Shown here piece after piece: positions 1,650 through 28,265 of a stretch of DNA of 64,000 nucleotides; the stretch's first letter is position 1, and every line of letters starts with the position of its first letter. Made by a program: the position numbers and the translations under genes. The notes under the pieces are model-generated. The model searched no databases, had not been told where the DNA came from, and worked only from the letters and a program-made list of their open reading frames with translations. The DNA is from an uncultured Acidimicrobiales bacterium (GTDB lineage: Bacteria; Actinomycetota; Geothermincolia; Fen-727; Anoxymicrobiaceae), in NCBI GenBank assembly GCA_964512645.1, contig CAZEJS010000010.1, positions 7,022 to 71,021 of the forward strand. Direction: 5' to 3'.

Positions 1650-1727
1650 CGGGACGTGGCGCAGTCAGGTTAGCGCACTGGTCTGGGGGACCAGGGGTCG
1701 CCGGTTCAAATCCGGCCGTCCCGACCA
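1650..1727 (+). tRNA. tRNA-Pro (anticodon GGG) with encoded CCA
   Basis: Manual cloverleaf: acceptor CGGGACG/CGTCCCG; D-stem GCGC/GCGC; anticodon stem CTGGT/ACCAG with loop CTGGGGG (U33, GGG, G37); T-stem GCCGG/CCGGC with loop TTCAAAT; discriminator A, then CCA. Confidence 0.85.
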
Positions 1728-5292: not shown

Positions 5293-6717
5293 GTGGTTGT
5301 GGTGAATGAGATTGCTTTTGGCACCGATGGCTGGCGTTCCACGGTCGACACCGATTTCAACGAAGAGAACGTGAGGATCGTTACTCAGGCCATCTGCAAC
5401 TACCTCTACGAGAAAGAGCTCGCGCAGAAAGGCTGCGTAGTCGCCTACGATACCAGGACGCACTCCGAGGGGTTCTCCGAGATCGTCGCCGACGTGCTTG
5501 TGCGCAACGGCATCGCGGCCTTGAGGATGGAAACGTTCTGCCCTACGCCGCAGGCGGCTTTCGCCGTCAAGCAAGTGGGCGCCGCCGGAGCCATAATGCT
5601 GACCGCGAGCCACAACCCCCCCGCGTATAACGGCATCAAGTTCATACCGCACTATGCCGGACCCGCAACTCCCGACATCACCGACGATATCGAATGGGAG
5701 ATCGGCACTCTCAGGGAGGAAGGAACGACGGAGCCCCCCGTGGAGCGCACCATCGGCCCCTTGAAGAAACTCGACGTCAGCAACGAATACATCAAGCACC
5801 TGCTTACTCTCGTCGAACGATCCGTCATCGAACGCTCGAAGGTCAAGGTGCTGTTCGACCCGATGTACGGGTCGGGACAGAACGTGTTCATGCGAGCGCT
5901 CGCGCACATGGACACTTTTGTCGTGCCCCTCCACTGCTACCTCGACCCGGATTTCGGAGGCCTGCTTCCGGAGCCGACGGAGGCCAACCTCGAGGAGTGC
6001 AAGAAGGCCGTGCTGGACAACCGCACGGACGTCGGCGTGGCGCTGGACGGCGACGCGGACCGTTTCGGCGTTGTCGATTCCCGGGGGGAGTACCTCAGCC
6101 CCAACAAGGCGCTGACACTCATCCTCTGGTACCTCCTGACTTACAAGCCGACAGGGGGGGCGGTAGCCCGTTCTCTGGCGACAACACATATGCTCGATAC
6201 GATAGCCGAGCACAACGGCTGCCGCGTGCTGGAAACCCCCGTGGGGTTCAAGTACATCGGCGAACTGATGCGCGAAAAGATGATCATCCTCGGCGCGGAG
6301 GAGAGCGGCGGCATGAGCGTGGCGGGACACATACCGGAGAAAGACGGGCTGGTGGCGGGACTGATACTCATCGAGATAGCGGCGCGTTTCAAGAAGCCCT
6401 TCTCCGAACTTCTGGACAACATCTACCGGGAGCTGGGCCCCTGTTACGACGAGCGCATCGATATCGAGATCGGAGAAGGCAAGAAGATGGAGCTCATGGA
6501 GACTCTCCGCGACGGCCCCCCGCGCAGGATCGGGGACGAAGACGTCGTAAAGGTTGACTTGAGGGACGGGGTCAAAGTCGTTACCGGGGAAGACTCCTGG
6601 ATACTTGTGCGGGCTTCCGGCACTGAACCCATGGTAAGGGTCTACGTGGAAGCTCGAACGCGCGAGGCTTTCGACAAGGTCAGGAAAACAGCGCTCAAGC
6701 TGGTCAAGGTGAAATGA
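5293..6717 (+). CDS. Phosphoglucomutase/phosphomannomutase (alpha-D-phosphohexomutase)
   Basis: FGTDGWRS and canonical TASHNPPAYNGIKF motifs; GEESGG sugar-binding loop. The start could be any of the GTG codons at 5293, 5299 or 5302. Confidence 0.85.
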   Translation: MVVVNEIAFGTDGWRSTVDTDFNEENVRIVTQAICNYLYEKELAQKGCVVAYDTRTHSEGFSEIVADVLVRNGIAALRMETFCPTPQAAFAVKQVGAAGAIMLTASHNPPAYNGIKFIPHYAGPATPDITDDIEWEIGTLREEGTTEPPVERTIGPLKKLDVSNEYIKHLLTLVERSVIERSKVKVLFDPMYGSGQNVFMRALAHMDTFVVPLHCYLDPDFGGLLPEPTEANLEECKKAVLDNRTDVGVALDGDADRFGVVDSRGEYLSPNKALTLILWYLLTYKPTGGAVARSLATTHMLDTIAEHNGCRVLETPVGFKYIGELMREKMIILGAEESGGMSVAGHIPEKDGLVAGLILIEIAARFKKPFSELLDNIYRELGPCYDERIDIEIGEGKKMELMETLRDGPPRRIGDEDVVKVDLRDGVKVVTGEDSWILVRASGTEPMVRVYVEARTREAFDKVRKTALKLVKVK

Positions 6718-6739
6718 CCCGTCACGAGGAGGGTCCCGG

Positions 6740-7582
6740 ATGGGAAGCCTGAAGCTCTGCTGCGTGGCGCCTCACCCCCCCATACTGGTCCCCGAGGTCG
6801 GGGGGCCCGAGGCCGAAAAGGTCAGCGCCACAGCGCGGGCCCTGCACTCCCTGGCCGACGAGATAGAGGCGCTCGATTTGGACACCGTCGTAATCATGTC
6901 CCCCCACAGTCCCGTGTACGCTGAAGCGTTTGCCGTGAAAGGCGTACCGTCGCTCGGCGGTTCACTCCGGCAGTTCGGCGCGCCGCAGGTTCGCTACGAC
7001 TCCGAGACGGACCTCGAGTTGGCCGGTTCCCTGGTCGAAGCGGCCGCCTCGATGGACGTCCGCTGCGAGATGGTTGGGACGCGCGGATACCGTCATCCGG
7101 ACGTGTCCGATCTGGACCACGGCGTGCTGGTTCCCATGCATTTCCTGGCCCGAAAGAGGTACCCGCTGGTGTGCATATCTCTTTCGATGCTGGATTACCG
7201 CTCCCACTACAAGCTGGGCGTCGCCCTGCGCCGTGCCGTTGAAGAGAGCGGCCGGAACTGCCTATTCGTGGCTTCCGGCGACATGTCCCACCGGCTGCTG
7301 CCGGGCGCCCCGGCAGGCTACGATCCCCTTGGGGCCGATTTCGACGCCGAGATTGTCGAGATACTGTCGAGCGGAGAATTCCGCGGGCTTTTCGAGCTGG
7401 ACGACAGGCTGGTGGACAGGGCGGGTGAGTGCGGCCTCCGGCCGGTCTTCACTCTCGCCGGCGCCGTTGACGGCTACGCCAGGTCCAGCGGCGTGCTTTC
7501 GTACGAAGGGCCGTTCGGGGTAGGTTATCTTGTTGCCAGGGTCAAGCCGGGGGCGCGGGACGCGTCTCTTTCTATCCTTTGA
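6740..7582 (+). CDS. LigB-family (class III extradiol dioxygenase / DODA-YgiD / Memo-like) protein
   Basis: Colinear with YgiD/LigB: APHPP(ILVP), SPHSP, DHGVLVPMHF, VASGDMSHRL. A 4-bp overlap with the downstream AMMECR1 gene. Confidence 0.75.
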   Translation: MGSLKLCCVAPHPPILVPEVGGPEAEKVSATARALHSLADEIEALDLDTVVIMSPHSPVYAEAFAVKGVPSLGGSLRQFGAPQVRYDSETDLELAGSLVEAAASMDVRCEMVGTRGYRHPDVSDLDHGVLVPMHFLARKRYPLVCISLSMLDYRSHYKLGVALRRAVEESGRNCLFVASGDMSHRLLPGAPAGYDPLGADFDAEIVEILSSGEFRGLFELDDRLVDRAGECGLRPVFTLAGAVDGYARSSGVLSYEGPFGVGYLVARVKPGARDASLSIL

Positions 7583-9121: not shown

Positions 9122-9954
9122 CCCCGATGGAGTTCTCCAAGTACGAAGCAACCGCCAACGACTTCATTATGCTCGACCGCACCTCGGGGGGGCCCGGAAC
9201 CGTGCCGGCGCTGGCAATGGCGCTGTGCGACAGGAGAAGGGGCGTTGGAGCGGACGGGGTGATCGAGGTGCTGCCCTCCGGCCGCTGTGACCTGAGGATG
9301 CGCATCCTGAACGCTGACGGCTCGGAAGCCGGCATGTGCGGCAACGGGATAAGGGCGCTGTTCCTGTTCGCGCTGGACAGAGGGATCGCGACCGGCGACC
9401 ATATCACCGTCGAAACGCCCGCCGGCGACAGGCTCGTCAGGCGTCACCCGGGACCGGGGGGGGATGATTTCTCCGTGGAGATGGGAGCTCCCCGCTGGCT
9501 GCGCCGAGACGTGCCGATGACCGGGCGGCCGGACGAAGAAGCGATCGGAGTCGAACTTACCGTCGACGGGCGCTCTTTCGAGGTCACCTGCGTATCGATG
9601 GGGAACCCCCATTGCGTGCTGTTCGTCCAGGACCTCCCCTCCTGTGATGTCGGGCGTCTCGGGCCGGCAATTGAGGTTCACGAGGCGTTCCCCGAGCGAA
9701 CAAACGTGGAGTTCGCGCGTGTAGGCCCCGGTGATGAGGTCCACCTCAGGGTGTGGGAGCGCGGGGTAGGTGAGACCATGGCGTGCGGGACCGGCGCCTG
9801 CGCGTCGGTCGTGGCGGCGTCCCTGGGTGGCCTCACCGGCGGAAACGCCCTGGTCAGGGTTCCCGGGGGAACCCTTGAGGTGCAATGGGACGACCGGGGC
9901 GTGGTCCTCACCGGTGGAGCGCGCCATGTTTTCGACGGAAAGACGGTGGGGTAG
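9118..9954 (+). CDS. dapF: Diaminopimelate epimerase
   Basis: KYEATANDFIM..., catalytic CGNG and GACAS(V) cysteine motifs; 278 aa. Confidence 0.9.
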   Translation: MTPMEFSKYEATANDFIMLDRTSGGPGTVPALAMALCDRRRGVGADGVIEVLPSGRCDLRMRILNADGSEAGMCGNGIRALFLFALDRGIATGDHITVETPAGDRLVRRHPGPGGDDFSVEMGAPRWLRRDVPMTGRPDEEAIGVELTVDGRSFEVTCVSMGNPHCVLFVQDLPSCDVGRLGPAIEVHEAFPERTNVEFARVGPGDEVHLRVWERGVGETMACGTGACASVVAASLGGLTGGNALVRVPGGTLEVQWDDRGVVLTGGARHVFDGKTVG

Positions 9955-11121
9955 ATGGAACTGTCCGAAAGGCTGAAGGCCATTCCGCCTTACCTGTTCG
10001 CTGAGATCGACCGCAGGATCGCGGAGAAAAAGGCGCAGGGCGTCGACGTGATAAGTTTCGGCGTCGGGGATCCGGACGTGCCTACGCCCGGCACTGTCGT
10101 TGACAGGCTGTGCGCGGAGGCCCGGAAACCGGAGAACCACAGGTATCCGGACTACTTCGGCCTCCTTGAGTACCGTGAAGCCTGCGCCGTATGGCTCCGC
10201 CGCAGGTTCGGCGTCGAGATGGACCCGGAAACGGAGATCCTGCCGGTGATGGGCTCCAAGGAGGGTATCGCCCACCTGGCCCTGGCCGTGCTGGACCCGG
10301 GCGCGCTGGCCTTCGTCCCCGAACCGGGTTACCCGGTGTACGAGATGGGCGCTTTGCTGGCCGGCGCCCGGCCGTATTTTCTTCCGCTCAGCGCCGACAT
10401 GGGTTTCCTGCCGGACTTCGAGGCGATCCCCGGCGAGGCGCTTTCCCGCGGGCGCCTGCTCTGGCTCAACTACCCCAACAACCCCACGGGCGCGGTGGCG
10501 GACCGGGAGTTTTTCGAGGGCGCGGTCGAGTTCTGCAGGCGACACGACCTCTTGCTCGCGCACGACAACGCTTACTCGGAGATAACCTACGACGGTTACG
10601 TGGCCCCGAGCGCCCTCGAAGCGAACGGGGCCGCCGATGTCTGCATAGAGTTCCATTCCCTGTCGAAGACGTTCAACATGAGCGGCTGGCGCATCGGGTT
10701 TGTGTGCGGGAACGCCGCGGCCATAAAGGCTCTGGGCACGGTAAAGACAAACATCGACTCCGGCGTGTTCAATCCTGTGCAGCTCGCGGCGGTCGAAGCG
10801 CTCGAGCGGTGCGCGGAAGATGTCGCGGTGATGGTCGAGACGTACGCAAGGCGGCGCGACCTGCTCATCGGGGGCCTGGGGCGCCTTGGATGGGACGCAA
10901 CGCCCCCCAGGGGCGCCATATACATCTGGCTGCCGGTACCGGAAGGTTATGACTCCGTATCGTTCTCGACACACGTACTGGACCGCGCCGGGGTCTTTTT
11001 CACTCCGGGCAACGCCTACGGGCCGTCCGGTGAAGGATACGTCAGGCTGTCTCTCACCGTGCCCGACGAGCGCATAGCCAGCGCCGTTGAGCGCCTCGAG
11101 GGAGTCTTCCGGGTTGCTTGA
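9955..11121 (+). CDS. dapL: LL-diaminopimelate aminotransferase (DapL-type PLP aminotransferase, class I/II)
   Basis: 388-aa aminotransferase with FHSLSKTFNMSGWRIGF (PLP lysine) and YPNNPTGA; starts immediately after dapF. Confidence 0.75.
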   Translation: MELSERLKAIPPYLFAEIDRRIAEKKAQGVDVISFGVGDPDVPTPGTVVDRLCAEARKPENHRYPDYFGLLEYREACAVWLRRRFGVEMDPETEILPVMGSKEGIAHLALAVLDPGALAFVPEPGYPVYEMGALLAGARPYFLPLSADMGFLPDFEAIPGEALSRGRLLWLNYPNNPTGAVADREFFEGAVEFCRRHDLLLAHDNAYSEITYDGYVAPSALEANGAADVCIEFHSLSKTFNMSGWRIGFVCGNAAAIKALGTVKTNIDSGVFNPVQLAAVEALERCAEDVAVMVETYARRRDLLIGGLGRLGWDATPPRGAIYIWLPVPEGYDSVSFSTHVLDRAGVFFTPGNAYGPSGEGYVRLSLTVPDERIASAVERLEGVFRVA

Positions 11122-12397
11122 GAAACAGGGAACCACCGGTGAGCCCTGGACCGCCGTCCTTGTCTCGGTTCAACCGCCTGGCGTCACCGACGAGGAGGCG
11201 GGCGAATTCCTCGAAGAGCTGGCCGCACTCGCCAGCACCGCAGGCGCAAACGCGACCTCCTCCGTGCTCCAGCGGAGGAGCACGCCGGACCCCGCGACGC
11301 TCCTGGGAAGCGGCAAGGCCAGGGAGGTCGCCGGGGAGGTCGAGGCCAGCGGCGCGTCGCTCGTCATCTTCGACAACGAGCTGTCAATCGGACAGCAGGA
11401 CAGGCTGGCCGAGCTCCTTGGCGCCCGTGTCGTAGACCGCACCGCGCTCATCCTGGAAATATTCGCCCAGCACGCGCACACTGCCGAAGGCAGGGTCCAG
11501 GTGGAGCTCGCGCAGTACTCCTATCTCCTCCCGCGCATCAGGGGATACGGGATGGAGCTGTCGAGAATGGGGGGAGGCATCGGCACCAGGCGGGGACCGG
11601 GCGAGACCAAGCTGGAGGTCGACCGACGGCGTATCCGGAAGCGGATACACCGCCTCGAGGCCGAACTGGAAAGGTTGGAGGCGGTAAGACGGACGCAGCG
11701 CAAACGGCGCGTAAAGGCGGGGCTGCCGTCGGTGTGCCTCGTCGGGTACACCAACAGCGGGAAGTCCTCCCTGCTCAACCGTCTTACGGGAGCCGGCGTG
11801 CCCGTCGAGGACCAGCTCTTCAGCACTCTCGACTCGACGACCAGGAGAATGGCCCTCCCTGGGGGCCTGACCGCGCTGCTCTCCGATACGGTCGGTTTCA
11901 TACGGAAGCTGCCTCACGAGCTGGTGGCCGCTTTTCGCTCGACTCTAGAGGTGGTAAGGGACTCGGACCTCCTGCTCCACGTCATCGACCCGACAAGGAG
12001 CGGGACGATGGAGGCCAGGACCAGGTCCGTAGAAGCGGTCCTGTCGGAACTCGGGGCGGAAGAACTCCCCGTGATAGAGGTGATAAACAAGGTCGATACC
12101 CTGGACCCCGCTGCCCGCCAGTCGCTGGAGTCGTCCCGTCCCGCCGCCCTGCAGGTTTCGGCAAGGACGGGGGAGGGGCTGAGTGTCCTCCTCGGTGAGA
12201 TCGCCACCGCCCTGTCCGCGGGACCGTGCGTAACCGTCCGTGTGCCGGTGGAGCGCGGCGACGTAATCTCCAGGTTGCACAGGGAAGGGACGGTGCTTTC
12301 GAGCGAGGTAGACGGCGAGTCCATGGTGATCACCGCGCGGCTGCCCGCCGATCGCCGTTCTGCGTTCTCGCCGTACCTGGCAGGAGATGGCAGGTAA
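11087..12397 (+). CDS. hflX: GTPase HflX
   Basis: N-terminal HflX domain (ERAVLV-like, coiled coil) and G-domain GYTNSGKSSLLNRL, DTVGF, NKVD. The start is uncertain (TTG 11087 or TTG 11114) and overlaps the dapL 3' end. Confidence 0.85.
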   Translation: MSASRESSGLLEKQGTTGEPWTAVLVSVQPPGVTDEEAGEFLEELAALASTAGANATSSVLQRRSTPDPATLLGSGKAREVAGEVEASGASLVIFDNELSIGQQDRLAELLGARVVDRTALILEIFAQHAHTAEGRVQVELAQYSYLLPRIRGYGMELSRMGGGIGTRRGPGETKLEVDRRRIRKRIHRLEAELERLEAVRRTQRKRRVKAGLPSVCLVGYTNSGKSSLLNRLTGAGVPVEDQLFSTLDSTTRRMALPGGLTALLSDTVGFIRKLPHELVAAFRSTLEVVRDSDLLLHVIDPTRSGTMEARTRSVEAVLSELGAEELPVIEVINKVDTLDPAARQSLESSRPAALQVSARTGEGLSVLLGEIATALSAGPCVTVRVPVERGDVISRLHREGTVLSSEVDGESMVITARLPADRRSAFSPYLAGDGR

Positions 12398-12823: not shown

Positions 12824-13294
12824 ATGAAGTGTCCGTTCTGCGGGAGTAGAAAAACGAAGGTCATAGACTCGAGATCGGTGGATGACGGCGCAGCTATCAG
12901 GCGCCGGCGCAGCTGCCCTTCATGCGGATCGAGGTTCACCACTTTCGAGCGGCGCGAAAGGGTGGACGTGGTTGTGCTCAAGCGCGACGGAGAGCGAGAA
13001 CCGTACAGCAGGGAGAAGGTCGCCACCGGGTTCTACAAGGCCCTTAGCAAGAGAGACGTCCCTGAGTCTGTCATCGAAAGCACCGTCGACGAGATAGAGG
13101 ACGAGCTCAAGCGTCGCCAGGACAAGGAAGTGGCGGCCTCCGAAATAGGTGACATGGTAATGGAGCGGCTCATGCGCATCGACGAGGTCGCCTACATGCG
13201 CTTCGCGTCGGTGTACAAGAACTTCGGAGACGTCAGCGAGTTCCGGAGGGAGCTGGGGCAGTTCATGCCCGAGGAGATGGACAGCAACGCCTGA
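12824..13294 (+). CDS. nrdR: Transcriptional repressor NrdR
   Basis: MKCPFCGS..., Zn-ribbon CPFC/CPSC, ATP-cone (VIKRDGEREPYSREKV); SD GAAGGAAG. Confidence 0.9.
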   Translation: MKCPFCGSRKTKVIDSRSVDDGAAIRRRRSCPSCGSRFTTFERRERVDVVVLKRDGEREPYSREKVATGFYKALSKRDVPESVIESTVDEIEDELKRRQDKEVAASEIGDMVMERLMRIDEVAYMRFASVYKNFGDVSEFRRELGQFMPEEMDSNA

Positions 13295-13310
13295 ACGGTG
13301 CGACGGCACG

Positions 13311-15509
13311 GTGACTCGAAAGGAGCGGGAAGTGACACCTCGGATCCAGGTTGTCAATAACGGGGGAGAGTTCAACTATGACCCTGCGGGCGATGCGACC
13401 GATATCGCCCTGCAGGTGAGCACGGTCTCTGCCGAGGAGATCAACCTCTGGGACAAGCAGAGGATCGTGGACTCCATCATCCTGGAAGCCCAGGCCTCGC
13501 CCGGCCTGGCCGCGGAGATCGCCGACGAGGTCGAGAAGACGCTGATCGCGTCCGGGCAGACGAGGGTGACGACGAGCCTGATCCGGGAGCTCGTGGACCT
13601 GCAATTGATGGAGCGCGGGCTTTCGCAGATGCTGGAGAAGCACACCAAGCTCGGCCTCCCGATGTTCGACGTGGAAAACATCATCACCCAGGCGAACAAG
13701 GAGAACTCCAACACCACCCACAACCCCGAGTCGATCAACCTGACTATCGCCGAGACCGTGCTCAAGCAGTACGCGCTGGAGCGGGTGTTCTCCGACGACG
13801 TCGCCCGTCTGCACTACGAAGGGGCCATACACCTGCACGACCTCGGGTTCGTGGTCCGTCCGTACTGCGGCGGACACAGCCTCGAATACGTGAAGAAGTA
13901 CGGACTGCGGCTGCCCAACATCACCAGCACGTCCGGGCCGGCGAAGCACGCCGACGTCCTGATAGGCCACATGGTCAAGATGGCTTCGACGCTGCAGTCC
14001 TATTACGCCGGAGCGATCGGCTGGGAAGCCGTCAACGTGTTCTTCGCGCCGTTCCTGGTGGGGATGCCCTACGAGAGGATCAAGCAGCTGGCCCAGATGC
14101 TGATCTTCGAGTTCAACCAGCTCGCCGGGGCCCGCGGCAGCCAGGTGGTGTTCACCGACTTCAACCTGTACTGGAACGTCCCCCGGCACCTCAGGGAAGC
14201 GCCCGCGGTCGGCCCGGGCGGGCTCGAGACGGGGAAGACTTACAAGGAGTACGAGCGCGAGGCGCAGCAGTTCCTCACCGCCCTGTTCGAGGTCTACATG
14301 GACGGCGACGCCATGGGCAAAACGTTCGTATTCCCCAAGCCGCTGCTGCACATCAACGACGATTTCTTCCGCACCGAGGGCTGGGAGGAGTTCCTCGACC
14401 TCGCCTGCGCGGTGGCGAGCCGGCAGGGCATAACCTACTTCGTTTTCGACCGGGGCGACGAGATCACGGTCTCGCAATGCTGCAGGCTGAAGCTCAAGCT
14501 GCAGGAGGTCGACCTTGCCGAGGCTATGACCCCGGAGAAGATGCGCTTCAGCGCCCTGCAGAACATTACCATCAACCTGCCGCGCATCGCCTACCGCGCA
14601 CACGGCAGCGACGAGATGCTTTTCAGCGAGCTCGAGAAGACCCTCGAGCTTGTTGCCAGGGCCCACCTCCAGAAGCACAAGTTCATTACCTCGCTGATGG
14701 AGCTGGGCAGGGACGGCCCGGTGTCGCTCCTCTGCATGGAGCACGACGGCGAGCCGTACCTCAAGCTGGACCGGCTGACATACCTCGCGGGGCTGCTGGG
14801 GCTCAACGAAATGGTCCAGCACCACGTGGGCAGCCAGCTTCACGAGTCGCCCGAGGCGCTGCGTTTTGGCCTCAAGGTGGTGGCCCACATGAACCTCGTC
14901 TGCGAGCGGCTCTCGGAGAAGATGGGGATCAACATGGTCCTGGAGGAATCCCCGGCCGAGTCCAGCGGATACAGGCTGGCCAAGTTGGACATGAAGTACT
15001 ACCCGGAACAGGCGGGAAAGGTCGTCAAGGGGCAGATCGATACCGGCCGCTATTACTACACCAACTCGATCCACCTGGCTACCGACGCCCCGATCGACTA
15101 CGTGGAAAGGGTGCAGAAGCAGAGCCTCTTCCACCCCCTGATCAAGGCGGGAGCCATCATCCACATCTGGCTGGGTGAGCACGAACCTCCGGCGGCGTCG
15201 ATAAGGAAGTTCGTCGAAAAGGTCTTCTGGGACACAAACGCCGCCCAGGTGGCCTTCAGCCCCGAGTTCACCGTTTGCAACGCCTGCAGCAGGACCAGCA
15301 GGGGGCTCTCCGCGGAGTGTCCGAAGTGCGGTTCGGAAGACACTTACGGAATCACCAGGATCGTCGGCTACTACTCGAAGGTCTCGACATGGAACAAGGG
15401 AAAACTGGGAGAGCTCGAGGAGAGGAGCAGGACTCCGCTCGGGGGAGGGGGCAGGAATGCTACTGAAGGTGTTCGTCAAAGACAACTGTCCGAACTGTCC
15501 AGCGGCTAA
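13311..15509 (+). CDS. nrdD: Anaerobic ribonucleoside-triphosphate reductase (class III RNR)
   Basis: 732 aa; C-terminal Zn-ribbon CNACSRTSRGLSAECPKCG followed by the glycyl-radical motif TRIVGYYS; 16 nt downstream of nrdR. Confidence 0.9.
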   Translation: MTRKEREVTPRIQVVNNGGEFNYDPAGDATDIALQVSTVSAEEINLWDKQRIVDSIILEAQASPGLAAEIADEVEKTLIASGQTRVTTSLIRELVDLQLMERGLSQMLEKHTKLGLPMFDVENIITQANKENSNTTHNPESINLTIAETVLKQYALERVFSDDVARLHYEGAIHLHDLGFVVRPYCGGHSLEYVKKYGLRLPNITSTSGPAKHADVLIGHMVKMASTLQSYYAGAIGWEAVNVFFAPFLVGMPYERIKQLAQMLIFEFNQLAGARGSQVVFTDFNLYWNVPRHLREAPAVGPGGLETGKTYKEYEREAQQFLTALFEVYMDGDAMGKTFVFPKPLLHINDDFFRTEGWEEFLDLACAVASRQGITYFVFDRGDEITVSQCCRLKLKLQEVDLAEAMTPEKMRFSALQNITINLPRIAYRAHGSDEMLFSELEKTLELVARAHLQKHKFITSLMELGRDGPVSLLCMEHDGEPYLKLDRLTYLAGLLGLNEMVQHHVGSQLHESPEALRFGLKVVAHMNLVCERLSEKMGINMVLEESPAESSGYRLAKLDMKYYPEQAGKVVKGQIDTGRYYYTNSIHLATDAPIDYVERVQKQSLFHPLIKAGAIIHIWLGEHEPPAASIRKFVEKVFWDTNAAQVAFSPEFTVCNACSRTSRGLSAECPKCGSEDTYGITRIVGYYSKVSTWNKGKLGELEERSRTPLGGGGRNATEGVRQRQLSELSSG

Positions 15510-15699
15510 AGAAGTCGCGAACCAGTTCCCGTTCAGCAGGCTGTTCGACATGGACAAGGCGGAGGGCCTTGCGGAGGCGGCGTTCCACAGCGTGCTCTGC
15601 ACCCCGTCGATGGTTCTCGTCGACGACACGGAAAACGTCATTCACTCCTGGCGCTGCCACGTCCCGCGGCCCACGGAGATCGCCAACTACGCGGCTTGA
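15457..15699 (+). CDS. Glutaredoxin/NrdH-like small redoxin (CxxC)
   Basis: 80 aa, MLLKVFVKDNCPNCP... thioredoxin-fold N-terminus; overlaps the nrdD 3' end by 53 nt in another frame. Confidence 0.5.
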   Translation: MLLKVFVKDNCPNCPAAKEVANQFPFSRLFDMDKAEGLAEAAFHSVLCTPSMVLVDDTENVIHSWRCHVPRPTEIANYAA

Positions 15700-16845: not shown

Positions 16846-17498
16846 GCGGCGCTCTCGTCCTGCTTTCGGGCGGCATGGACTCGGCCGTGTGCCTGTACGA
16901 AGCGATCGAGGCGCACGGCACCGTTGCCGTAGAGTGTCTTTTTTTCGACTGGGGCCAGCTCGCGGTCGAGCAGGAGCGCCGCTGCTGCTCCGCCCTCTGC
17001 AGGGCAGCGGGGGTCGCCCCGCAGATCGAGGTCGAACTTCACTTCCCGTACCGCGGTCCGCTCACCGACGAGTCGCTGGGCATGCCCAGAGGCAGGACAC
17101 CGTCACAGATCAGCGGGGGAGGGGTGGAGGCGACGTTCTTCCCCGGCAGAAACCTGGTAATGCTCGCAAGCGCGTTCGGGATCGCCGCCGCCCGGGGCAT
17201 CGAGCGCATCTATTTCGGGGCCACCGCCCAGGACGGCTCCGGGTACCCCGACTGCCGCGCCGAATTCCTCCGGGCGATGGAAGATGCGTGTTCCGCGGGT
17301 GTCGGCCGTGAGATCGAGCTCGTGACCCCTCTTCTGGGAATGTCCAAGGCTCGAGTGGCGCTCAGGGGTGAGGAGCTTGGGGTCCCCTGGGACCTGACCT
17401 TCTCCTGCTACGCGCCGCGCGGCGGTGAACCGTGCGGCACCTGCGACTCCTGCGTACTCAGGGGGAACGCTCTTCATCGGGACGGTCAATCTCCGTAA
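16842..17498 (+). CDS. queC: 7-cyano-7-deazaguanine synthase
   Basis: SGGMDS PP-loop, C-terminal Zn-binding CxxC..C (GEPCGTCDSCVLR). Confidence 0.9.
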   Translation: MSGALVLLSGGMDSAVCLYEAIEAHGTVAVECLFFDWGQLAVEQERRCCSALCRAAGVAPQIEVELHFPYRGPLTDESLGMPRGRTPSQISGGGVEATFFPGRNLVMLASAFGIAAARGIERIYFGATAQDGSGYPDCRAEFLRAMEDACSAGVGREIELVTPLLGMSKARVALRGEELGVPWDLTFSCYAPRGGEPCGTCDSCVLRGNALHRDGQSP

Positions 17499-19200
17499 CC
17501 GCCTCGCCCGCCGGATTGGCGGTGTCAACCGCGGGAGAGGTGTCGCCCTGTTCCCCCTCTTCCGCGCCTTCAGGCTCTTCGTCCCAGTCCGGCAGTATCC
17601 TCGGCATGCTGACGTCCAGCCTGATCGAACGCTTGATGTAGCCGCTGAAGACGAGCGGTATCGAGAAAATCACCAGTACGGCCACAGCCAGCAGGATCCA
17701 ACTGCGGCCGGATCCTTTCGTCCTGCGCGGGGCCGCGCTCCCCACCACGCCCCCTTCCCCGAAGACGTCCGTGCTCGACCACTCGGACGCCTGGAGAACC
17801 TGTCCGCCGGTGACCCGGCCGGAGAAGAACCTGTCCCAGCTCTTTCCGGTGCCGTTCTCCAGGACCTCGCTCACGTCAACCTGGGTGTAACGCTTGCCCT
17901 TCATGCCGTCGAACCGGTCCGCCATCCTGCCCAGAAACCATTCCATGTCCTTGGCGCCTCCGGCTGTCTGGCTGCGCAGGCGCACCGCGAGGGATGCCAG
18001 GACGCATGCCCCCTTGGTAGCCAGCAGGTCGGCGGCGGCGGGGTCAGATTCCGCGTCTTGCAGGCTGACGGTAAGCGCCAGAGGATCCGTCAGGTACTCG
18101 GAATAGACCCGGGAGAAATCTGCGTAGGCGTCGTTGGCGTCGAGGAGCCCGGTCTTGCCCGCGACCCGGTAGGCGTAGAACCATGGCAATCCCCGTTCGA
18201 GCCATTCGGCTCCGCCCCCGGGCTTCGCCGCGAGGGAAAGGCCGTTCCAGAGGCCGAGCCAGCCCCTGGCCGCCGCGGAGGCGGCGCTCCCTTTGATGTC
18301 GGATTCTGCGGTGGAGAGAAGGAAGGAGTCCCTCAGTGCCAGCGACCCCGACCGGCCCGGCCCGGCGTCCGGCACGCGGACTACCAGCACGGAAGCCGCT
18401 TCCTGGTCGGGCCTGGCTCCCAGGACCTTCACCACCTCGTCTCGAAGCCTGGAAAGGCCTTCTGCGAAGGACCGCCGCTGCTTCGAACTCAACCCGCTGA
18501 ATCCCGCTGTGATCCTCGGACCCCTGCCCCTCAGTTCGACAACGTCCATCTTGCCCCAGGCGATGAAGTTGGAGAGAAGCTCGCCCGTCGTTCCCACGGC
18601 GTACTTTCCCTTCTCGCCGCTCCAGGGGGCAAGTACGGCTTCCCCGGGGGCGCAATCGACTTCAACCGAATAACCACCCTCGAAGTAGTCCCCGGAGGCA
18701 TCCTGGGGCGCCAGGAGCACGTCTGAGGCGCTGAAAACCTTCAGGTGCCTGTCGGTTATGGCACGGGGAGGAACGGCGCTTCCAGCGACGCCTCCGCGCT
18801 CCCAGTAGTACTCGGGGTCGCCGGGGGCGAAACGGACCCGGTATTCCACCTCTACCGCGCCATCGCCCCTGGAGATGAGCTCCCAACCGTTCGCCGGTCC
18901 CTCGAGGGGCTTGACCTCGTATCCAGGGTCGGCCGGCCCGGTGAGTTCGAGCGCCGGTGGAGGCCCCGAAAATGGCGGCTCCGAGGTTGCGTCCAAGGGC
19001 TTGAGAACGGCTTTCTGGCCCGCTTTCATATTGAAGGTCAACCTGACGTCCACCGCCGTCCGATCCGCAGCGTCGGACCTCAAGGTGTACTTCACCGCTG
19101 CTTTCGAGGCGGCGCGTGCGGCAGTGGGGGAGGGGACGGCGACCAGCGCGGCGAACAGGGCCGCGAACAGCCATACGGATATGTTCCGGGCAGCTTTCAT
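17458..19200 (-). CDS. Secreted protein with cleavable signal peptide and C-terminal membrane anchor plus acidic tail; function unknown
   Basis: Probable start MKAARNISVWLFAALFAALVAVPSPTAARA (ATG 19200, SD AAGGAG). C-terminal TM WILLAVAVLVIFSIPLVFSGYI is followed by a D/E-rich tail. Lies 64 nt downstream of the FtsX-like permease. Confidence 0.7.
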   Translation of the reverse strand: MKAARNISVWLFAALFAALVAVPSPTAARAASKAAVKYTLRSDAADRTAVDVRLTFNMKAGQKAVLKPLDATSEPPFSGPPPALELTGPADPGYEVKPLEGPANGWELISRGDGAVEVEYRVRFAPGDPEYYWERGGVAGSAVPPRAITDRHLKVFSASDVLLAPQDASGDYFEGGYSVEVDCAPGEAVLAPWSGEKGKYAVGTTGELLSNFIAWGKMDVVELRGRGPRITAGFSGLSSKQRRSFAEGLSRLRDEVVKVLGARPDQEAASVLVVRVPDAGPGRSGSLALRDSFLLSTAESDIKGSAASAAARGWLGLWNGLSLAAKPGGGAEWLERGLPWFYAYRVAGKTGLLDANDAYADFSRVYSEYLTDPLALTVSLQDAESDPAAADLLATKGACVLASLAVRLRSQTAGGAKDMEWFLGRMADRFDGMKGKRYTQVDVSEVLENGTGKSWDRFFSGRVTGGQVLQASEWSSTDVFGEGGVVGSAAPRRTKGSGRSWILLAVAVLVIFSIPLVFSGYIKRSIRLDVSMPRILPDWDEEPEGAEEGEQGDTSPAVDTANPAGEAVTEIDRPDEERSP

Positions 19201-19264
19201 CGAAAAAGCGGACTCCTTGTTTTCAACCGAGTATAACAGAACGAACCGCCAGGCAACCGGTCCT

Positions 19265-21655
19265 CTAACCCCCGCGCTCCTTGGTGGCCTCGGCAAGCTC
19301 CACGCGCTTGACGTAGCGCAGGGCCGGAAGCTGGCAGAGCAGCAGGATGACTATGATTCCCACGCTCACGGCGACATAGCTGCTCGGATCGACGATGAGC
19401 GAGAGGGTCATGAAATCCGATTGCTGAAGGCTCATGGCGTACCTGCCCACCGCTACGCCCAGAAGGATTCCCGGTACGATGGCCAGGAGCCCGAAGATGA
19501 GGTTTTCGACCGTGGTCATCGCTGAGATCTTCCAGGATTCCGTGCCGATCGTCCTGATGGTGGCGATTTCACGCTCCCGCTCGAGGATATTGATGGTTAT
19601 GGTGTTGAAAGTAAGGGTAAACGCCATAAGGAGCGCGAAGACCAGCATGACGTACACGATGATGTACATAAGACCCATGTACTGGTCCACCTCCCGCTTG
19701 ATCTCCTTCAGGTCGATTATGGCCGCGAGCCCGGAGATCTTCTGGAGTCCCCGCCGGACCTGGTCCTGCTTGCCGGGAAACGCCTTCACGTAGAAGCTGC
19801 CCCTGGCTATGGTCCCGTATGCAAGCAGCTCCTGGGCTTCCGGCCGGCTGACGTAGAGGATGTTCCCCAGGGGCTCCTCGATGAACGGACCGACTGTGAA
19901 CGCCTTCTCGCGCCAGGCCGTCTTCAGGGTAACCCGCTGCCCCTCCTGGATCCCTTTTTTCAGGTGGTAGTACTGGTTGAGCAGGACGTGCCCGCCCGCG
20001 AGCTCCACCGGCTTCCGTTCCGGGGTATAGAACCTGCGCATCCGGGTGTCCGGCTGCACCCCCATCATGACGGTGTCGTTGGACCCGCCGTCCCAGGAGA
20101 GCTTGACGTTGTAACCTGTCGTGGGCTCGACGCTCGAGACCCCATCGACGCGCTCTATGCGGTTGATCACCGCGACGTCCCTGTCGCCGAGGAAGATCGC
20201 GACCATGTCGAACCTGTTGTTGAGGGAGAAGCCCCGGTTCATAGCGTCGCTCGAGGTGTCGAGCACGGCGAGGAACACCAGGACTATCATCACCGAGAAG
20301 ATCAGCCCGAGGAGGGTGAAGGCGGTGCGCCTCCTGTTCCTGAACATGTTCCTCAGGGGCACCTTCAGGAACATCGGCAGCCCCTTGAGGGGCGGCAGTA
20401 CCCGCTCGAGAAGGGGCTGCTTGAAGACCGTCTCCAGGGTCTCGCCCCGCATCGCTTTCGAAGGGTCGAGGCGGGCCGACCTGGCGGCGGGCACTATCCC
20501 GGCGAACGCGCAGAACGCCAGGGAGAGCATCCCTCCCTGGAGCAGCACCAGCCAGTAGGTCCTGGTCTTGACCAGGGGGAATCCGAGCGTTCTGGCGTAC
20601 ATGGTGGTGATGAAGTACGACAGGCCGAACCCTGCGGCCATTCCCACCACCGCCCCGATGAGGCCGATGATCAGCGCGAAGGAGAGGTAGTGCCCGAGGA
20701 TGTCGCGCCTGCGGTATCCCATCGCTCTCATGACACCGATGAACGGCCTCTGGGTGTAAACGAGCCTGCTCAGCAGGATGTAGATGCTGAAGCACGCTAT
20801 GCCAAGGAAGAGGAGAGGGAAGAAGAGGGCGAAGCTCCGCATGCCCTCCAGGTCCATCTTCAACATGTTGTTGCCGTTGTGCTGGTCCCTGGTCACGACC
20901 TCCTTGATCCCGGTGTTCTTCATGACCTCTTCGGCACTGGCGACCGTATCGTCCACCCTCGAGTAGTCGGCGACTTTGAAGAGGACCTGGTTGTAGAGGT
21001 TCGGAAGGTTGGCCATCCACCTCGCGTCCTCCGTCGGCACCCAGAAGATGGCCATGGTGGAGGCGGAAAGCATCGGGCTGAAGTCGCCTTTGTCTCCCGC
21101 CAGGACCAGGTACTCCGGGTTACCGGCTACGCCGATCACCTTGATGGGGATCCTCGACCCCTGGCGCAGGTAGTAGAGGTAGTCCCCTGGCTTGATCCCG
21201 TAGAAATCGGCGAAGTGAGACTCGGCGATGCAGACCCTGGATTCGCCCTTCTTGAAGAAGCGTCCCTTTTTTACCAGCAGGTCGTCCACCTGGGGCTGTT
21301 CCGGTGGGATACCGAGGGTCCTGCCCATCAGCTTCTTGCCGCTCGCGAGCTCGACGGATACGTCCGTCTTCACCCGGGGCGTGAGCATGGTTACGCCTCT
21401 GATCTTCCGTAGCTTCTCGACGACGTACCGCGGAACCTGCTCCGCCCTCACCGAGAAGTCGGCGAAGTTGAGCCTTTCGTAGGTGTATTCGTACGAAGCC
21501 TGGAGGTTCCGGTACGACATCGACGAAGCGATGAATATCATCACGCCGATCATCACCACCAGCGTGATCGCTACGAACCTCACCTTAGCGCCAAGAATCT
21601 CCCGTATCAGCTTGATGCGCATCGAGTTCATCTCGGGCATCTTCAAACTGCTCAT
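19265..21655 (-). CDS. FtsX-family ABC-transporter permease with duplicated permease modules (YbbP/MacB-like, type VII)
   Basis: 796 aa; two repeats, each with an N-terminal TM, a roughly 200-aa extracytoplasmic domain and a 3-4 TM FtsX domain; no ABC ATPase gene nearby. Confidence 0.85.
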   Translation of the reverse strand: MSSLKMPEMNSMRIKLIREILGAKVRFVAITLVVMIGVMIFIASSMSYRNLQASYEYTYERLNFADFSVRAEQVPRYVVEKLRKIRGVTMLTPRVKTDVSVELASGKKLMGRTLGIPPEQPQVDDLLVKKGRFFKKGESRVCIAESHFADFYGIKPGDYLYYLRQGSRIPIKVIGVAGNPEYLVLAGDKGDFSPMLSASTMAIFWVPTEDARWMANLPNLYNQVLFKVADYSRVDDTVASAEEVMKNTGIKEVVTRDQHNGNNMLKMDLEGMRSFALFFPLLFLGIACFSIYILLSRLVYTQRPFIGVMRAMGYRRRDILGHYLSFALIIGLIGAVVGMAAGFGLSYFITTMYARTLGFPLVKTRTYWLVLLQGGMLSLAFCAFAGIVPAARSARLDPSKAMRGETLETVFKQPLLERVLPPLKGLPMFLKVPLRNMFRNRRRTAFTLLGLIFSVMIVLVFLAVLDTSSDAMNRGFSLNNRFDMVAIFLGDRDVAVINRIERVDGVSSVEPTTGYNVKLSWDGGSNDTVMMGVQPDTRMRRFYTPERKPVELAGGHVLLNQYYHLKKGIQEGQRVTLKTAWREKAFTVGPFIEEPLGNILYVSRPEAQELLAYGTIARGSFYVKAFPGKQDQVRRGLQKISGLAAIIDLKEIKREVDQYMGLMYIIVYVMLVFALLMAFTLTFNTITINILEREREIATIRTIGTESWKISAMTTVENLIFGLLAIVPGILLGVAVGRYAMSLQQSDFMTLSLIVDPSSYVAVSVGIIVILLLCQLPALRYVKRVELAEATKERGG

Positions 21656-21856
21656 CCCTTCTCGTGGCCCCGGTTTTTCGGGGCTTTCTTACACAGCATG
21701 CTCTCCTGGACGGTCCGCGTTCCCGGCGCGTTTCAGGCTCGCGCAGCGCAAACGCGTCCGCCGAGGCGCCAGGCGCAAAATACGACCTGAGCTCCGACTG
21801 GTGAAATGATAACCAATATGAGCAAAGAATGCCTCAAACGTGGAAGGCACAACGCC

Positions 21857-21887
21857 CCGCCGGGTCACCGGTGTGACCTCCCGGCGG
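21857..21887. repeat. 31-nt GC-rich perfect hairpin/palindrome
   Basis: CCGCCGGGTCAC-CGGT-GTGACC(T)CCCGGCGG: about 13 bp of stem with a tetraloop and no trailing U-tract. Confidence 0.6.
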
Positions 21888-21926
21888 TCGCTTCCCTGTG
21901 GATGGAACCTCTATCGCGAATGTCCC

Positions 21927-21940
21927 ATAATATATATTAT
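21927..21940. repeat. 14-bp perfect AT palindrome ATAATATATATTAT inside an AT-rich island
   Basis: Self-complementary, embedded in cccATAATATATATTATgtaaacttatt within an otherwise GC-rich 650-bp intergenic region. Confidence 0.6.
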
Positions 21941-22312
21941 GTAAACTTATTGCGAACCACCCTTTTCCCCGCCCCGCAATCCCTCGTCTCGCACCTCTCC
22001 TCCCTGCTCGTGCAACCGGGTTACGTCTTGCGGGACGGCGACCGTCCTGTGTTAACTGTCAACAGGTGCAATCGGCTGAGGTGTTCCACCGCCTGGCGGC
22101 TCGTCGCCCCGGGCCCGGCGGGGCCTCTCCCCCGTCGTACCTGCCGCGGGCACTCCCCCGAGACAGGTCACCCGCCTTTTCCGGCGCGCAATTCCGGCGA
22201 CTCGGGTGACGGATGCCTTGCGCAATGTTCGCGCCGGCTACACCGGCCAGGGAAAGCAAGCGCGTATCGCGCGCGTTCTGGCGGCATCATTCCGGCTGTA
22301 GAGGCGAGGAGA

Positions 22313-22870
22313 TCAGGACCTGCGGGACAGGGCCTCCCGGAGCATTTCCGTGTAACGCTCGTTCAGGAAGTAGCCCATGTCCTGCTCGAACTCGAAGAGG
22401 TTCTCGCGGCGGTAATCCTCTGAGGCCTTTCTGCGCATGTTCAGCATGGCGACCGTCAGGCTGTGTATCTCGAACTCCACGTCGCTCAAGGAGCGGTCGA
22501 TCTCGTCGATGAACTCCTGGATCATCATTCCCCGGCCTTTCTCCAGGAGCACCTTGAGCGCGGTCATCTCGATCTCTCCTAGTTCTCCGATGTACCGGTC
22601 GAGTTCTTCCTGAGTCCATGTGTCCGGTTGCGGCACCATGACTATCCAAGTCTCGGTGGCGTCAATTCCTTCGACACCCCGTACGGTGGAGAGGATGGTG
22701 TCCTGGAGCGTCTCCAGATCGGGCCCGTGCATCACCGCTACCACGTCGTAATGACCGGACACGCCCTCGGCGGAGAGCACCTGCGGCATCTGGGACAGCG
22801 TCCGCATCACCACGTCAAGGTTTCCCGCGCTGACTGTTATAAATACGTATGCCTTCTTCTTCACGTCCAC
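22313..22870 (-). CDS. Lrp/AsnC ligand-binding (RAM) domain protein with an unknown C-terminal extension
   Basis: N-terminal 80 aa (AYVFITV..G.LD.V...L..MPQVLSAEGVSGHYDVVAVMHGPDLETLQDTILSTVRGVEGIDATET) match a stand-alone RAM domain; the C-terminal roughly 100 aa are novel; no N-terminal HTH. Confidence 0.7.
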   Translation of the reverse strand: MDVKKKAYVFITVSAGNLDVVMRTLSQMPQVLSAEGVSGHYDVVAVMHGPDLETLQDTILSTVRGVEGIDATETWIVMVPQPDTWTQEELDRYIGELGEIEMTALKVLLEKGRGMMIQEFIDEIDRSLSDVEFEIHSLTVAMLNMRRKASEDYRRENLFEFEQDMGYFLNERYTEMLREALSRRS

Positions 22871-27263: not shown

Positions 27264-28265
27264 CTAAGACCCCGGCACGACTATTTCGCAATCGACCCAC
27301 CGGACCCCCTTCAGGCCGACCGCTTCGGCCGCGCCCCTGGAGAGGTCGACCATCCGGTTGTCGGCCGATGGCCCCCTGTCGTTGACCTTCACGATGACGC
27401 TGCGCCCCAGGAAGGTAACCCTGAGATAGGTCCCCATCGGAAGGGTCCGGTGCGCACAGGTGAACGCGTACTGGTCGAAGGCTTCGCCGCTCGCCGTGGC
27501 CTTGCCCTGGGACTCGCCCCCGTACCAGCCGGCGTAGCCGCTGAAGATCTGCCCGGTCCTCACGAACCCTTTCTCGTCGGGCTTCGAGAAGATCCGGCCG
27601 GGTTCGAAGACCCTCGGGGCGGGAGTGTAGGTACCGGGAAGCTGCATAGCGATGAGCGAGGCGCTCACCTCTGCGAGCTCGTTCTTCTTGTTATCGAGCT
27701 CGGCCTGTATCGCGATGGTATCGGCTGTTTCGTGCAGGGCCGCCTGCTCCCTCTTGTACTCCTGCAGGCGTGTCTGGACCTCATGCAACCGCGATTTCTT
27801 CTCTCTCAGCCCTTCGAAAGCCTTGCTCTCGCTGGCGGCTATATTGAGCATGCGCTCGGACCAGACAAGGAAGTCGGTCACGTTGTCGCTTTCGAGGAGT
27901 CTCACCAGGGGGTCGGCGCGGCCGGCTACGTACAGGGCCCGGAACCTCCCGTTCAGGATCCGGCGCGCCGTTCGCACCGCCGCTTCGACGGCGTCTATCT
28001 CCATGTAGCACTCGAGTATCCGGCGCTCAACCTCGACAAGCCTCCGCGCTATCGACACCGAGTCCTGCTGTGAGGTTGCGAGCCTCGCCTCCAGAGAGGC
28101 GATCTCTTTCTCCAGAGTGCGCGCCCTCTCCTCCGCCGACATGAGGCTGTCCTGCACGACCTGTGCGAGGCAGGGCGATAGAAGGCCGGACGCGAGCGCC
28201 GCTACCAGCGCCGCGGCCAGCGCCGCGGCCGTGGCTCTTCTCGCGAAAGGTCGGACCTCGGGCAT
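27264..28265 (-). CDS. RlpA-like lytic transglycosylase (double-psi beta-barrel) with signal peptide and long coiled coil
   Basis: Signal peptide, coiled-coil middle region, C-terminal GWYGGESQGKATASGEAFDQYAFTCAHRTLPMGTYLRVT..GRSVIVKVNDRGP...VDLS RlpA DPBB signature. Confidence 0.8.
   Translation of the reverse strand: MPEVRPFARRATAAALAAALVAALASGLLSPCLAQVVQDSLMSAEERARTLEKEIASLEARLATSQQDSVSIARRLVEVERRILECYMEIDAVEAAVRTARRILNGRFRALYVAGRADPLVRLLESDNVTDFLVWSERMLNIAASESKAFEGLREKKSRLHEVQTRLQEYKREQAALHETADTIAIQAELDNKKNELAEVSASLIAMQLPGTYTPAPRVFEPGRIFSKPDEKGFVRTGQIFSGYAGWYGGESQGKATASGEAFDQYAFTCAHRTLPMGTYLRVTFLGRSVIVKVNDRGPSADNRMVDLSRGAAEAVGLKGVRWVDCEIVVPGS

Follow-up and report, generated by a model that had tools for sequence, protein, structure and literature searches.

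We describe a pair of adjacent genes in a 64-kb stretch of DNA from a Geothermincolia-like actinobacterium (contig CAZEJS010000010.1; hereafter the window, with a GC content of 63%, to whose coordinates all positions refer). The upstream gene encodes a single-chain duplicated FtsX-fold permease of 796 amino acids (aa), the downstream gene an exported 580-aa protein with the fold of the M61 peptidases, in which the zinc site is lost. Our composite reading, to which we assign a probability of about 0.55, is that the two proteins are the membrane component and the extracytoplasmic component of an ATP-binding cassette (ABC) system of type VII, whose ATPase is provided in trans and drives ectodomain movements that act on or through the pseudo-peptidase partner. 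We are probably dealing with a machine of known kind in which the pairing of partners is new, rather than with a novel type of machine. As a phenomenon, orphan duplicated FtsX permeases have been described before, since the Acidobacterial duplicated orphan permeases (ADOP, TIGR03434) are duplicated FtsX-domain permeases which are not encoded beside an ABC ATPase. The original prediction made from this DNA had supposed that the pair could be an undescribed envelope-remodelling or sensing module, and in the literature searched we found no paper describing the pair or linking M61 to FtsX-type permeases.

Architecture of the permease and its partner

Both open reading frames (ORFs) lie on the minus strand. 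Their strong bias towards GC at third codon positions (0.87 for the permease, 0.78 for the partner) indicates that they are real genes. The mechanical ORF of the partner can be read from as far up as a TTG at 19296, but in biological terms the ATG at 19200, giving 580 aa, makes the sensible start. The signal peptide begins there, an AAGGAG is found 12 nt upstream and this codon follows the permease stop by 64 nt. A terminator scan detected no terminator-like hairpin in this spacer. The features of the permease gene are as follows (TM, transmembrane helix; identities are means within the partner-linked clade of permeases).

19265-21655, minus strand: permease gene, 796 aa
20828-21520, minus strand: ectodomain 1, residues 46-276 (231 aa), MacB-type periplasmic core; MacB_PCD match at residues 31-243, mixed alpha/beta in the model, 62% identity
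20678-20770, minus strand: TM2-TM3 cytoplasmic loop, residues 296-326, SRLVYTQRPFIGVMRAMGYRRRDILGHYL, presumed coupling helix 1, 86% identity
19664-20260, minus strand: ectodomain 2, residues 466-664 (199 aa), second MacB_PCD stretch, also in the model, 60% identity
19502-19606, minus strand: TM6-TM7 cytoplasmic loop, residues 684-718, NILEREREIATIRTIGTESWKIS, presumed coupling helix 2, 92% identity
19201-19264, minus strand: intergenic spacer, 64 nt, with AAGGAG 12 nt before the partner ATG

The permease matched the Pfam families FtsX (E 1.4e-35; 122 bits, cut-off 25.5) and MacB_PCD (E 3.6e-16; 60.5 bits, cut-off 27), each in two stretches. A hydropathy scan placed eight TM helices at residues 27-45, 277-295, 327-345, 370-388, 447-465, 665-683, 719-737 and 761-779, and the two halves are joined by a cytoplasmic linker of 58 residues. 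Two FtsX/MacB-type modules with large ectodomains had been proposed before, and this was borne out. The protein thereby displays features of a type VII ABC membrane component, namely the 4-TM FtsX domain (twice), a large ectodomain inserted in each module between TM helices one and two, and a TM2-TM3 coupling helix per module.

The AlphaFold2 model of the permease (predicted local distance difference test, pLDDT, 83.7) was compared with the PDB using Foldseek. The best full-length match was E. coli YbbP (9ge6_A, E 4e-22, TM-score 0.66), followed by LolE/LolC, MacB, Spr0694-5, HrtB and BceB. There were also structural matches to the ectodomains of LolE and YknZ, and LolE, MacB and LolC were the best matches in a sequence search of the PDB. 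None of the curated family models reached its cut-off. The top NCBIfam match, lolCE (TIGR02212), scored 81.8 bits (cut-off 362), the LolE and LolC equivalog models 39.2 (439) and 28.3 (473), the three FtsX models 41.9 (225), 40.7 (250) and 15.8 (255), and the YbbP equivalog 15.4 (999). TIGR03434, the ADOP model, was matched only in its C-terminal part with 68.1 bits (622). The permease is a single-chain duplicated type VII ABC membrane component of the MacB/LolCE/YbbP-like kind and not FtsX proper. Another long ORF of the window (792 aa, 13263-15641, minus strand) was considered as a second permease and rejected, being an antisense shadow of nrdD.

In YbbP a coupling helix sits between TM2 and TM3 (PMC12646458). 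The two cytoplasmic loops of our permease are located at the corresponding positions, where the model contains helices at residues 303-311 and 694-703. Within the partner-linked clade (67 sequences) conservation was highest in TM2 (0.97), followed by the TM6-TM7 loop (0.92), TM6 (0.89), the TM2-TM3 loop (0.86) and the C-terminus (0.84), with the ectodomains at 0.60-0.62. Across 41 homologues down to 20% identity, including ATPase-linked ones, the near-invariant columns were S296, R297, Q302, R303, G307, A311, G313 and Y323 in the TM2-TM3 loop and N684, N689, E692, R693, E696, A698, T699, G704 and E717 in the TM6-TM7 loop.

As had been predicted, no ABC ATPase is encoded in the window. A six-frame scan detected no Walker A motif paired with an ABC signature, and tblastn of the window with a cognate MacB-type ATPase gave no match at E<=1e-5. 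As a positive control, this query picks up ABC ATPases with as little as 26% identity in unrelated loci. Pfam scans of the other long ORFs found no ABC_tran domain; these are housekeeping genes, including those for NrdR/NrdD, QueC, RecA, RNase Y, DivIVA, PhoH, a MiaB-like protein, Nramp and MgtE. About 20 related loci likewise showed no ABC ATPase around the pair, out to about 10 kb on those contigs that reach so far. The description of the permease as an orphan is thus right for its surroundings. For the system as a whole it probably does not hold, as indicated by the conservation of the coupling loops and by the operon of a 32%-identical relative (P0102 in locus L011, the one sampled at this level of identity). 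There, a TetR gene, an ABC ATPase gene and the permease gene form an operon, the stop of the ATPase gene overlapping the start of the permease gene, from which we conclude that the permease family descends from conventional transporters. Since the coupling loops belong to the best conserved parts of the protein and resemble those of P0102, the likeliest energy source is an ATPase whose gene lies elsewhere in the genome.

The following features were assigned to the partner gene.

17458-19200, minus strand: partner gene, 580 aa; a predicted signal peptide, a beta domain like M61_N, a domain with the M61/M1-like catalytic fold that lacks the zinc site, a TM anchor and a tail in the cytoplasm
19108-19200, minus strand: predicted signal peptide, residues 1-31, MKAARNISVWLFAALFAALVAVPSPTAARA/AS, signal peptidase I type with cleavage at AARA/AS and no lipobox cysteine; hydrophobic segment 7-25
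18244-18276, minus strand: residues 309-319, AAARGWLGLWN, a degenerate version of the active-site helix xAHExxHxWN
18190-18204, minus strand: residues 333-337, WLERG, at the site of WFxEG; R336 stands where the third zinc ligand, a Glu, would be
17641-17697, minus strand: C-terminal TM anchor, residues 502-520, Kyte-Doolittle value 2.69, helix 500-525 in the model, K/R-rich C-terminal flank
17575-17640, minus strand: juxtamembrane cytoplasmic motif, residues 521-542, YIKRSIRLDVSMPRILPDWDEE, conserved
17461-17574, minus strand: acidic tail downstream of this motif, not conserved

The export signal, the C-terminal TM helix and the acidic tail expected for this protein were all found; the cytoplasmic part of 60 aa contains 17 acidic and 6 basic residues. 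Scanned directly, the partner matched no Pfam family at E<=1, remaining below the gathering scores of PF05299 and PF17899, and no NCBIfam model, and when the PDB was searched with a sequence profile of the partner family, no match rose above chance level. A word-indexed search yielded 10 relatives. An exhaustive profile search extended these to 26 clusters at E<1e-30 and 251 at E<1e-3, and the distant matches carry the Pfam domains Peptidase_M61_N, Peptidase_M61 and Peptidase_M1. Alignment of the partner family (A3) with 16 relatives bearing M61/M1 domains (A7) by hhalign gave a probability of 100% (E 1.2e-41, 418 columns). Structure prediction of the 580-aa protein had been suggested as a check, and a fold search with the model returned the M61 fold, of which 4FGM, 8J9D and 7XYO are solved examples; both the M61_N beta domain and the thermolysin-like catalytic domain are present. 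The model is globular in this region and contains no long coiled coil. The matches are aminopeptidases and not LytM, CHAP or NlpC proteins.

The active relatives (A7) share an invariant H-E-x-x-H, the W-N following it and a W-F-x-E-G helix. The partner instead reads R312-G313-W-L-G316-L-W318-N319 and W333-L-E-R336-G337. According to the alignments (A2 and A3 against A7), the first histidine is replaced by R312, the glutamate by G313, the second histidine by G316 and the glutamate ligand by R336, with W318 and N319 retained. HExxH is absent from the partner and from the family as a whole (33 of 33 members), and the 580 residues contain a single histidine. In the family W333 and G337 are invariant and position 336 is variable. 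The scaffold around the former active site is retained, comprising W318, N319, W333, G337, Y342, R345 and the SWDRFF motif. Judged from these alignments the partner family is an M61 pseudo-peptidase that has lost its zinc site, and which therefore could bind but not cleave. The protein had been described as an effector without recognisable hydrolase motif. This was correct as to HExxH; as a zinc-site-less M61 homologue, however, the protein is recognisable by profile and fold searches.

Where some M61 relatives carry a PDZ domain, the partner has the TM anchor and a cytoplasmic motif with the consensus Y-[IV]-[KR]-R-[SA]-[IV]-[KR]-L-D-x-x-M-P-[KR]-I-L-P-D. In A1 and A3 the residues Y521, R524, L528, P533 and P537 of this motif are invariant, D529 and M532 nearly so. 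It is as conserved as the core fold of the partner and is kept down to 24% overall identity, as well as in a relative without adjacent permease. Among distant M61 relatives (P0195, P0210, P0226, P0237), M61_N and M61 are fused to BlaR1-type M56 transducers, to an extracytoplasmic function sigma factor with an immunoglobulin-like domain and to transglutaminase/CARDB modules. These architectures suggest that M61 ectodomains may have been used repeatedly as sensor or binding modules.

Conserved adjacency and chromosomal setting

Homologues of the permease fall into bands of 52-94%, about 40% and about 32% identity, the first consisting of metagenome-assembled genomes named Candidatus Geothermincolia or Actinomycetota. 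In the clade with at least 52% identity, every locus with enough sequence has the partner as its next gene downstream, on the same strand; there are about 20 such loci, including 6 GTDB species. These are L001-L005, L007, L008, L009, L012, L014-L019 (six GTDB species), L020 and seven further metagenome loci. A gene-neighbourhood check of this kind had been proposed with the original prediction, and within this clade it showed the pair unbroken. Across these loci the identity of the permease is 52-81% and that of the partner 27-55%, and relatives likewise have short spacers between the two genes (66-227 nt).

The same loci share further genes with the window, namely those for NrdR/NrdD, DUF3786, QueC, an AsnC-like protein, an AMP-binding protein and a DPBB protein. 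The pair is preserved while its immediate neighbours change. L007, L012 and L021 lack QueC, L012 carries an inserted HNH gene, and the presence of other small genes differs between loci. Relatives carry a GNAT gene between the AsnC-like gene and the dif site described below and a pterin-binding CdhD-like gene further upstream; by tblastn both are absent from the window (21656-22312, compared with 6489-7037 and 3356-4165 of L001). No family was matched by a 205-aa ORF at 21806-22423 on the plus strand. The set of genes directly at the terminus is variable.

A dif site of 28 nt is located at 21920-21947, 265 nt upstream of the permease gene (plus strand ATGTCCCATAATATATATTATGTAAACT), and is invariant in all related loci. 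It is identical to B. subtilis dif at 24 of 28 positions and shares the arm-spacer-arm arrangement of E. coli dif (sequences in PMC3025954). An invariant 30-nt block at this place, found also in the permease-less locus L021, was considered as a shared promoter or operator. This was rejected in favour of a XerCD dif site on account of the dif consensus match and of the occurrence of the core in more than 120 unrelated metagenome contigs with 25-66% GC. The site lies near a sign change of the GC skew (about 16-20 kb) and near the switch of gene strand from plus to minus at 17.5 kb. The coincidence of these three signs indicates that the window spans the replication terminus.

Further upstream, the gene at 22313-22870 (minus strand) encodes a protein of 185 aa that matched nothing but the ligand-binding (RAM) domain of AsnC/Lrp, in residues 9-78. 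It has no recognisable N-terminal helix-turn-helix, which is atypical for the family, and in all relatives it adjoins an AMP-binding gene resembling acyl/aryl-CoA ligases. The gene at 27264-28265 (minus strand), 5.6 kb upstream of the permease gene, on the same strand and in conserved synteny, encodes an exported protein of 333 aa, in which a signal peptide is followed by a long coiled coil and a C-terminal RlpA-like DPBB domain (lytic transglycosylase). Its orthologues scored 30.8 bits (L012) and 21.1 bits (L009) with the PcsB coiled-coil model CC_PcsB (cut-off 27). The product could be a client of canonical FtsEX or of the permease. No riboswitch was found in the long leader, and Rfam applied to the whole window found only one tRNA (1650-1724, plus strand, 64.8 bits). 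It lies inside a mechanical ORF for a CDP-alcohol phosphatidyltransferase (1564-2667), so that the true start of this gene must be downstream of the tRNA.

Interpretation and competing readings

In the type VII reading that we prefer, the two genes, which have an operon-like arrangement, would be co-transcribed and their products would form a complex. The single chain of the permease mimics the LolC/LolE or MacB dimer. The partner is a type-I membrane protein whose M61 ectodomain would bind without cleaving. Two copies of an ABC ATPase encoded elsewhere would dock on the coupling loops, and ATP-driven movements of the ectodomains would act on or through the pseudo-peptidase, the zinc-less groove of which may hold a peptide-like or lipid-linked envelope molecule. 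The pseudo-peptidase might be a non-catalytic receptor or hand-over platform to which the permease presents an extracted ligand, as with TesA on YbbAP or LolA on LolCDE. Alternatively it might be an allosterically switched adaptor, the binding state of which is set by the permease as in the case of EnvC on FtsEX.

Several observations weigh against this interpretation. All loci with the partner come from a single Geothermincolia-like lineage, in which synteny is kept over about 20 kb, and the adjacency is therefore not independent evidence. In L021 (5508-7130) and L022 (78-1700), both from GCA_028718945.1 with 42% GC, a 27%-identical partner including the tail motif is found at the same position after dif, with no permease on the 13.5-kb contig; in one lineage, the permease gene seems to have been cleanly lost or relocated. 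The permease clade at about 40% identity has neither the partner nor an adjacent ATPase in the one locus sampled (L010). A homologue search with the ATPase of P0102 found only Acidimicrobiia-type relatives, none of them sharing a contig with an orphan permease, and no ATPase was identified in this way. Finally, the model of the partner has moderate confidence (pLDDT 66.8). As to L010, the permease gene (9515-12367) is preceded there by that of a small DUF6941 protein, and this may be a second orphan arrangement.

The shared synteny, the partner without permease in L021/L022 and the permease without partner in L010 would also fit two uncoupled neighbours. In that case the permease with an unlinked ATPase would be an ordinary MacB-like exporter or extractor, and the M61-like protein an independent surface protein in a syntenic block close to the terminus. 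It is in line with this that a distant relative of the partner, TM-anchored and without HExxH, follows a PMT_2 glycosyltransferase gene and not a permease gene, and that a Rosetta-stone search revealed no FtsX-M61 fusions among the long M61 relatives. Nevertheless we consider this explanation unlikely on balance, if a serious one. The genes are on the same strand and separated by a short spacer with a ribosome-binding site and no terminator, the pair is unbroken in about 20 loci though its immediate neighbours change, and the adjacency is kept despite the sequence divergence of both proteins.

A further alternative is a module working independently of any ATPase. The permease would then be a passive scaffold or a transmembrane signal relay, comparable to ADOP, and the cytoplasmic motif of the partner would contact the former ATPase-docking face or another cytoplasmic factor. 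The lack of an ATPase around the permease in the window and in the related loci, the second orphan clade represented by L010 and the strong conservation of the 22-residue juxtamembrane motif speak for this possibility. ADOP, not known to occur next to ATPase genes, point in the same direction, but TIGR03434 was matched weakly (68 vs 622 bits). We regard such a module as improbable. The coupling loops are canonical, are shared with the ATPase-linked relative and are under the strongest constraint, for which continued docking of an ATPase is the simplest explanation, and L021 retains the tail motif without a permease gene beside that of the partner. Moreover, unlinked shared ATPases are well known in Actinobacteria, an example being MceG, which serves the Mce transporters (PMC9947336). 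A very unlikely form of the idea is a sensor of reverse mechanotransmission without ATPase. Here the dead M61 ectodomain would capture an envelope peptide, and the signal would pass through the TM bundle of the permease and the motif YxKRSxKLDxxMPKILPD of the partner, which would fill or replace the ATPase-docking grooves.

The original prediction had compared the pair with FtsEX-PcsB/EnvC. In its strict form this would make the permease an FtsX paralogue and the 580-aa protein a hydrolase, or an activator of hydrolases, in peptidoglycan remodelling. Such a controller could be suggested by the weak FtsX family match of the permease (E 7e-11), by the dead metallopeptidase fold of the partner, as in EnvC, and by the cell-wall genes nearby, which encode an S11 DD-carboxypeptidase and the coiled-coil DPBB protein. 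However, the two best FtsX models (41.9 and 40.7 bits) stay far below their cut-offs of 225 and 250, the ectodomains are of the MacB_PCD type and twice the size of that of FtsX, no ftsE is present in the window, and the partner resembles aminopeptidases and lacks a long coiled coil. A real PcsB-like architecture is found in a different gene, at 27264-28265. This reading is largely refuted as far as family membership is concerned, and we give it very little credence. What remains of the comparison is a type VII permease of the mechanotransmission type; the specific likeness to FtsX is replaced by MacB-type Porter/Sabre ectodomains and a best match to YbbP.

The partner classes of type VII ABC systems comprise adaptors, chaperones, hydrolase activators, kinases and, since 2025, a lipid hydrolase. 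If our interpretation is true, a membrane-anchored pseudo-aminopeptidase would add one more, and it would be the second dead metallopeptidase fold recruited to such a machine, after EnvC. With one copy per genome at a fixed position next to dif, the clade is a compact test case for whether orphan duplicated FtsX permeases use an ATPase from elsewhere or need none; the same question arises for ADOP. As the host organisms are uncultured, the practical impact will be limited until heterologous expression is achieved.

Comparison with known systems

EnvC is a metallopeptidase fold without catalytic residues, and the partner described here shares this property. FtsEX-EnvC/PcsB belongs to the same ABC superfamily and comprises a permease acting on an extracytoplasmic partner, as is proposed for the pair of the window. 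FtsX itself, in contrast, consists of one 4-TM module whose Porter/X-lobe ectodomain is small, is encoded beside ftsE and binds a coiled coil, none of which holds for the permease of the window. The M61 glycyl aminopeptidases differ from the partner, in which all residues of HExxH and the Glu ligand are replaced, which remains below the Pfam M61 thresholds and which carries a TM anchor and a cytoplasmic motif but no PDZ domain.

With ADOP the permease has in common that a duplicated FtsX-domain permease is not encoded next to an ABC ATPase. It differs in the phylum, in the fixed downstream partner gene and in being a single copy at a fixed chromosomal position, whereas ADOP form a large paralogous family. 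As in LolC/E or MacB, each half consists of four TM helices and a periplasmic core domain. Unlike in LolCDE and MacB, the halves are fused in one chain, and neither a LolD/MacB ATPase nor a MacA-type adaptor is encoded in the 64 kb. The host, an actinobacterium (Bacillati), presumably lacks an outer-membrane lipoprotein pathway.

A further close counterpart, with the best full-length structural match, is YbbAP-TesA of E. coli, described in 2025 (PDB 9GE6-9GE8). In this type VII ABC transporter the duplicated permease binds two YbbA ATPases via its coupling helices and one periplasmic hydrolase, TesA, and the function of type VII systems in general is defined by their partners (PMC12646458). 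The permease of the window is, like YbbP, a single-chain duplicated FtsX-fold protein of about 800 aa with two MacB-like Porter/Sabre ectodomains and two coupling helices, and in both cases an extracytoplasmic partner with a hydrolase fold is encoded beside the transporter. The sequence identity to YbbP is only 12%, and eight TM helices and a cytoplasmic linker are found here compared with ten TM helices and a TM5-6 hairpin in YbbP (PMC12646458). No ybbA-like ATPase gene adjoins the pair, and the partner is a membrane-anchored dead M61 fold, whereas TesA is a soluble active SGNH esterase.

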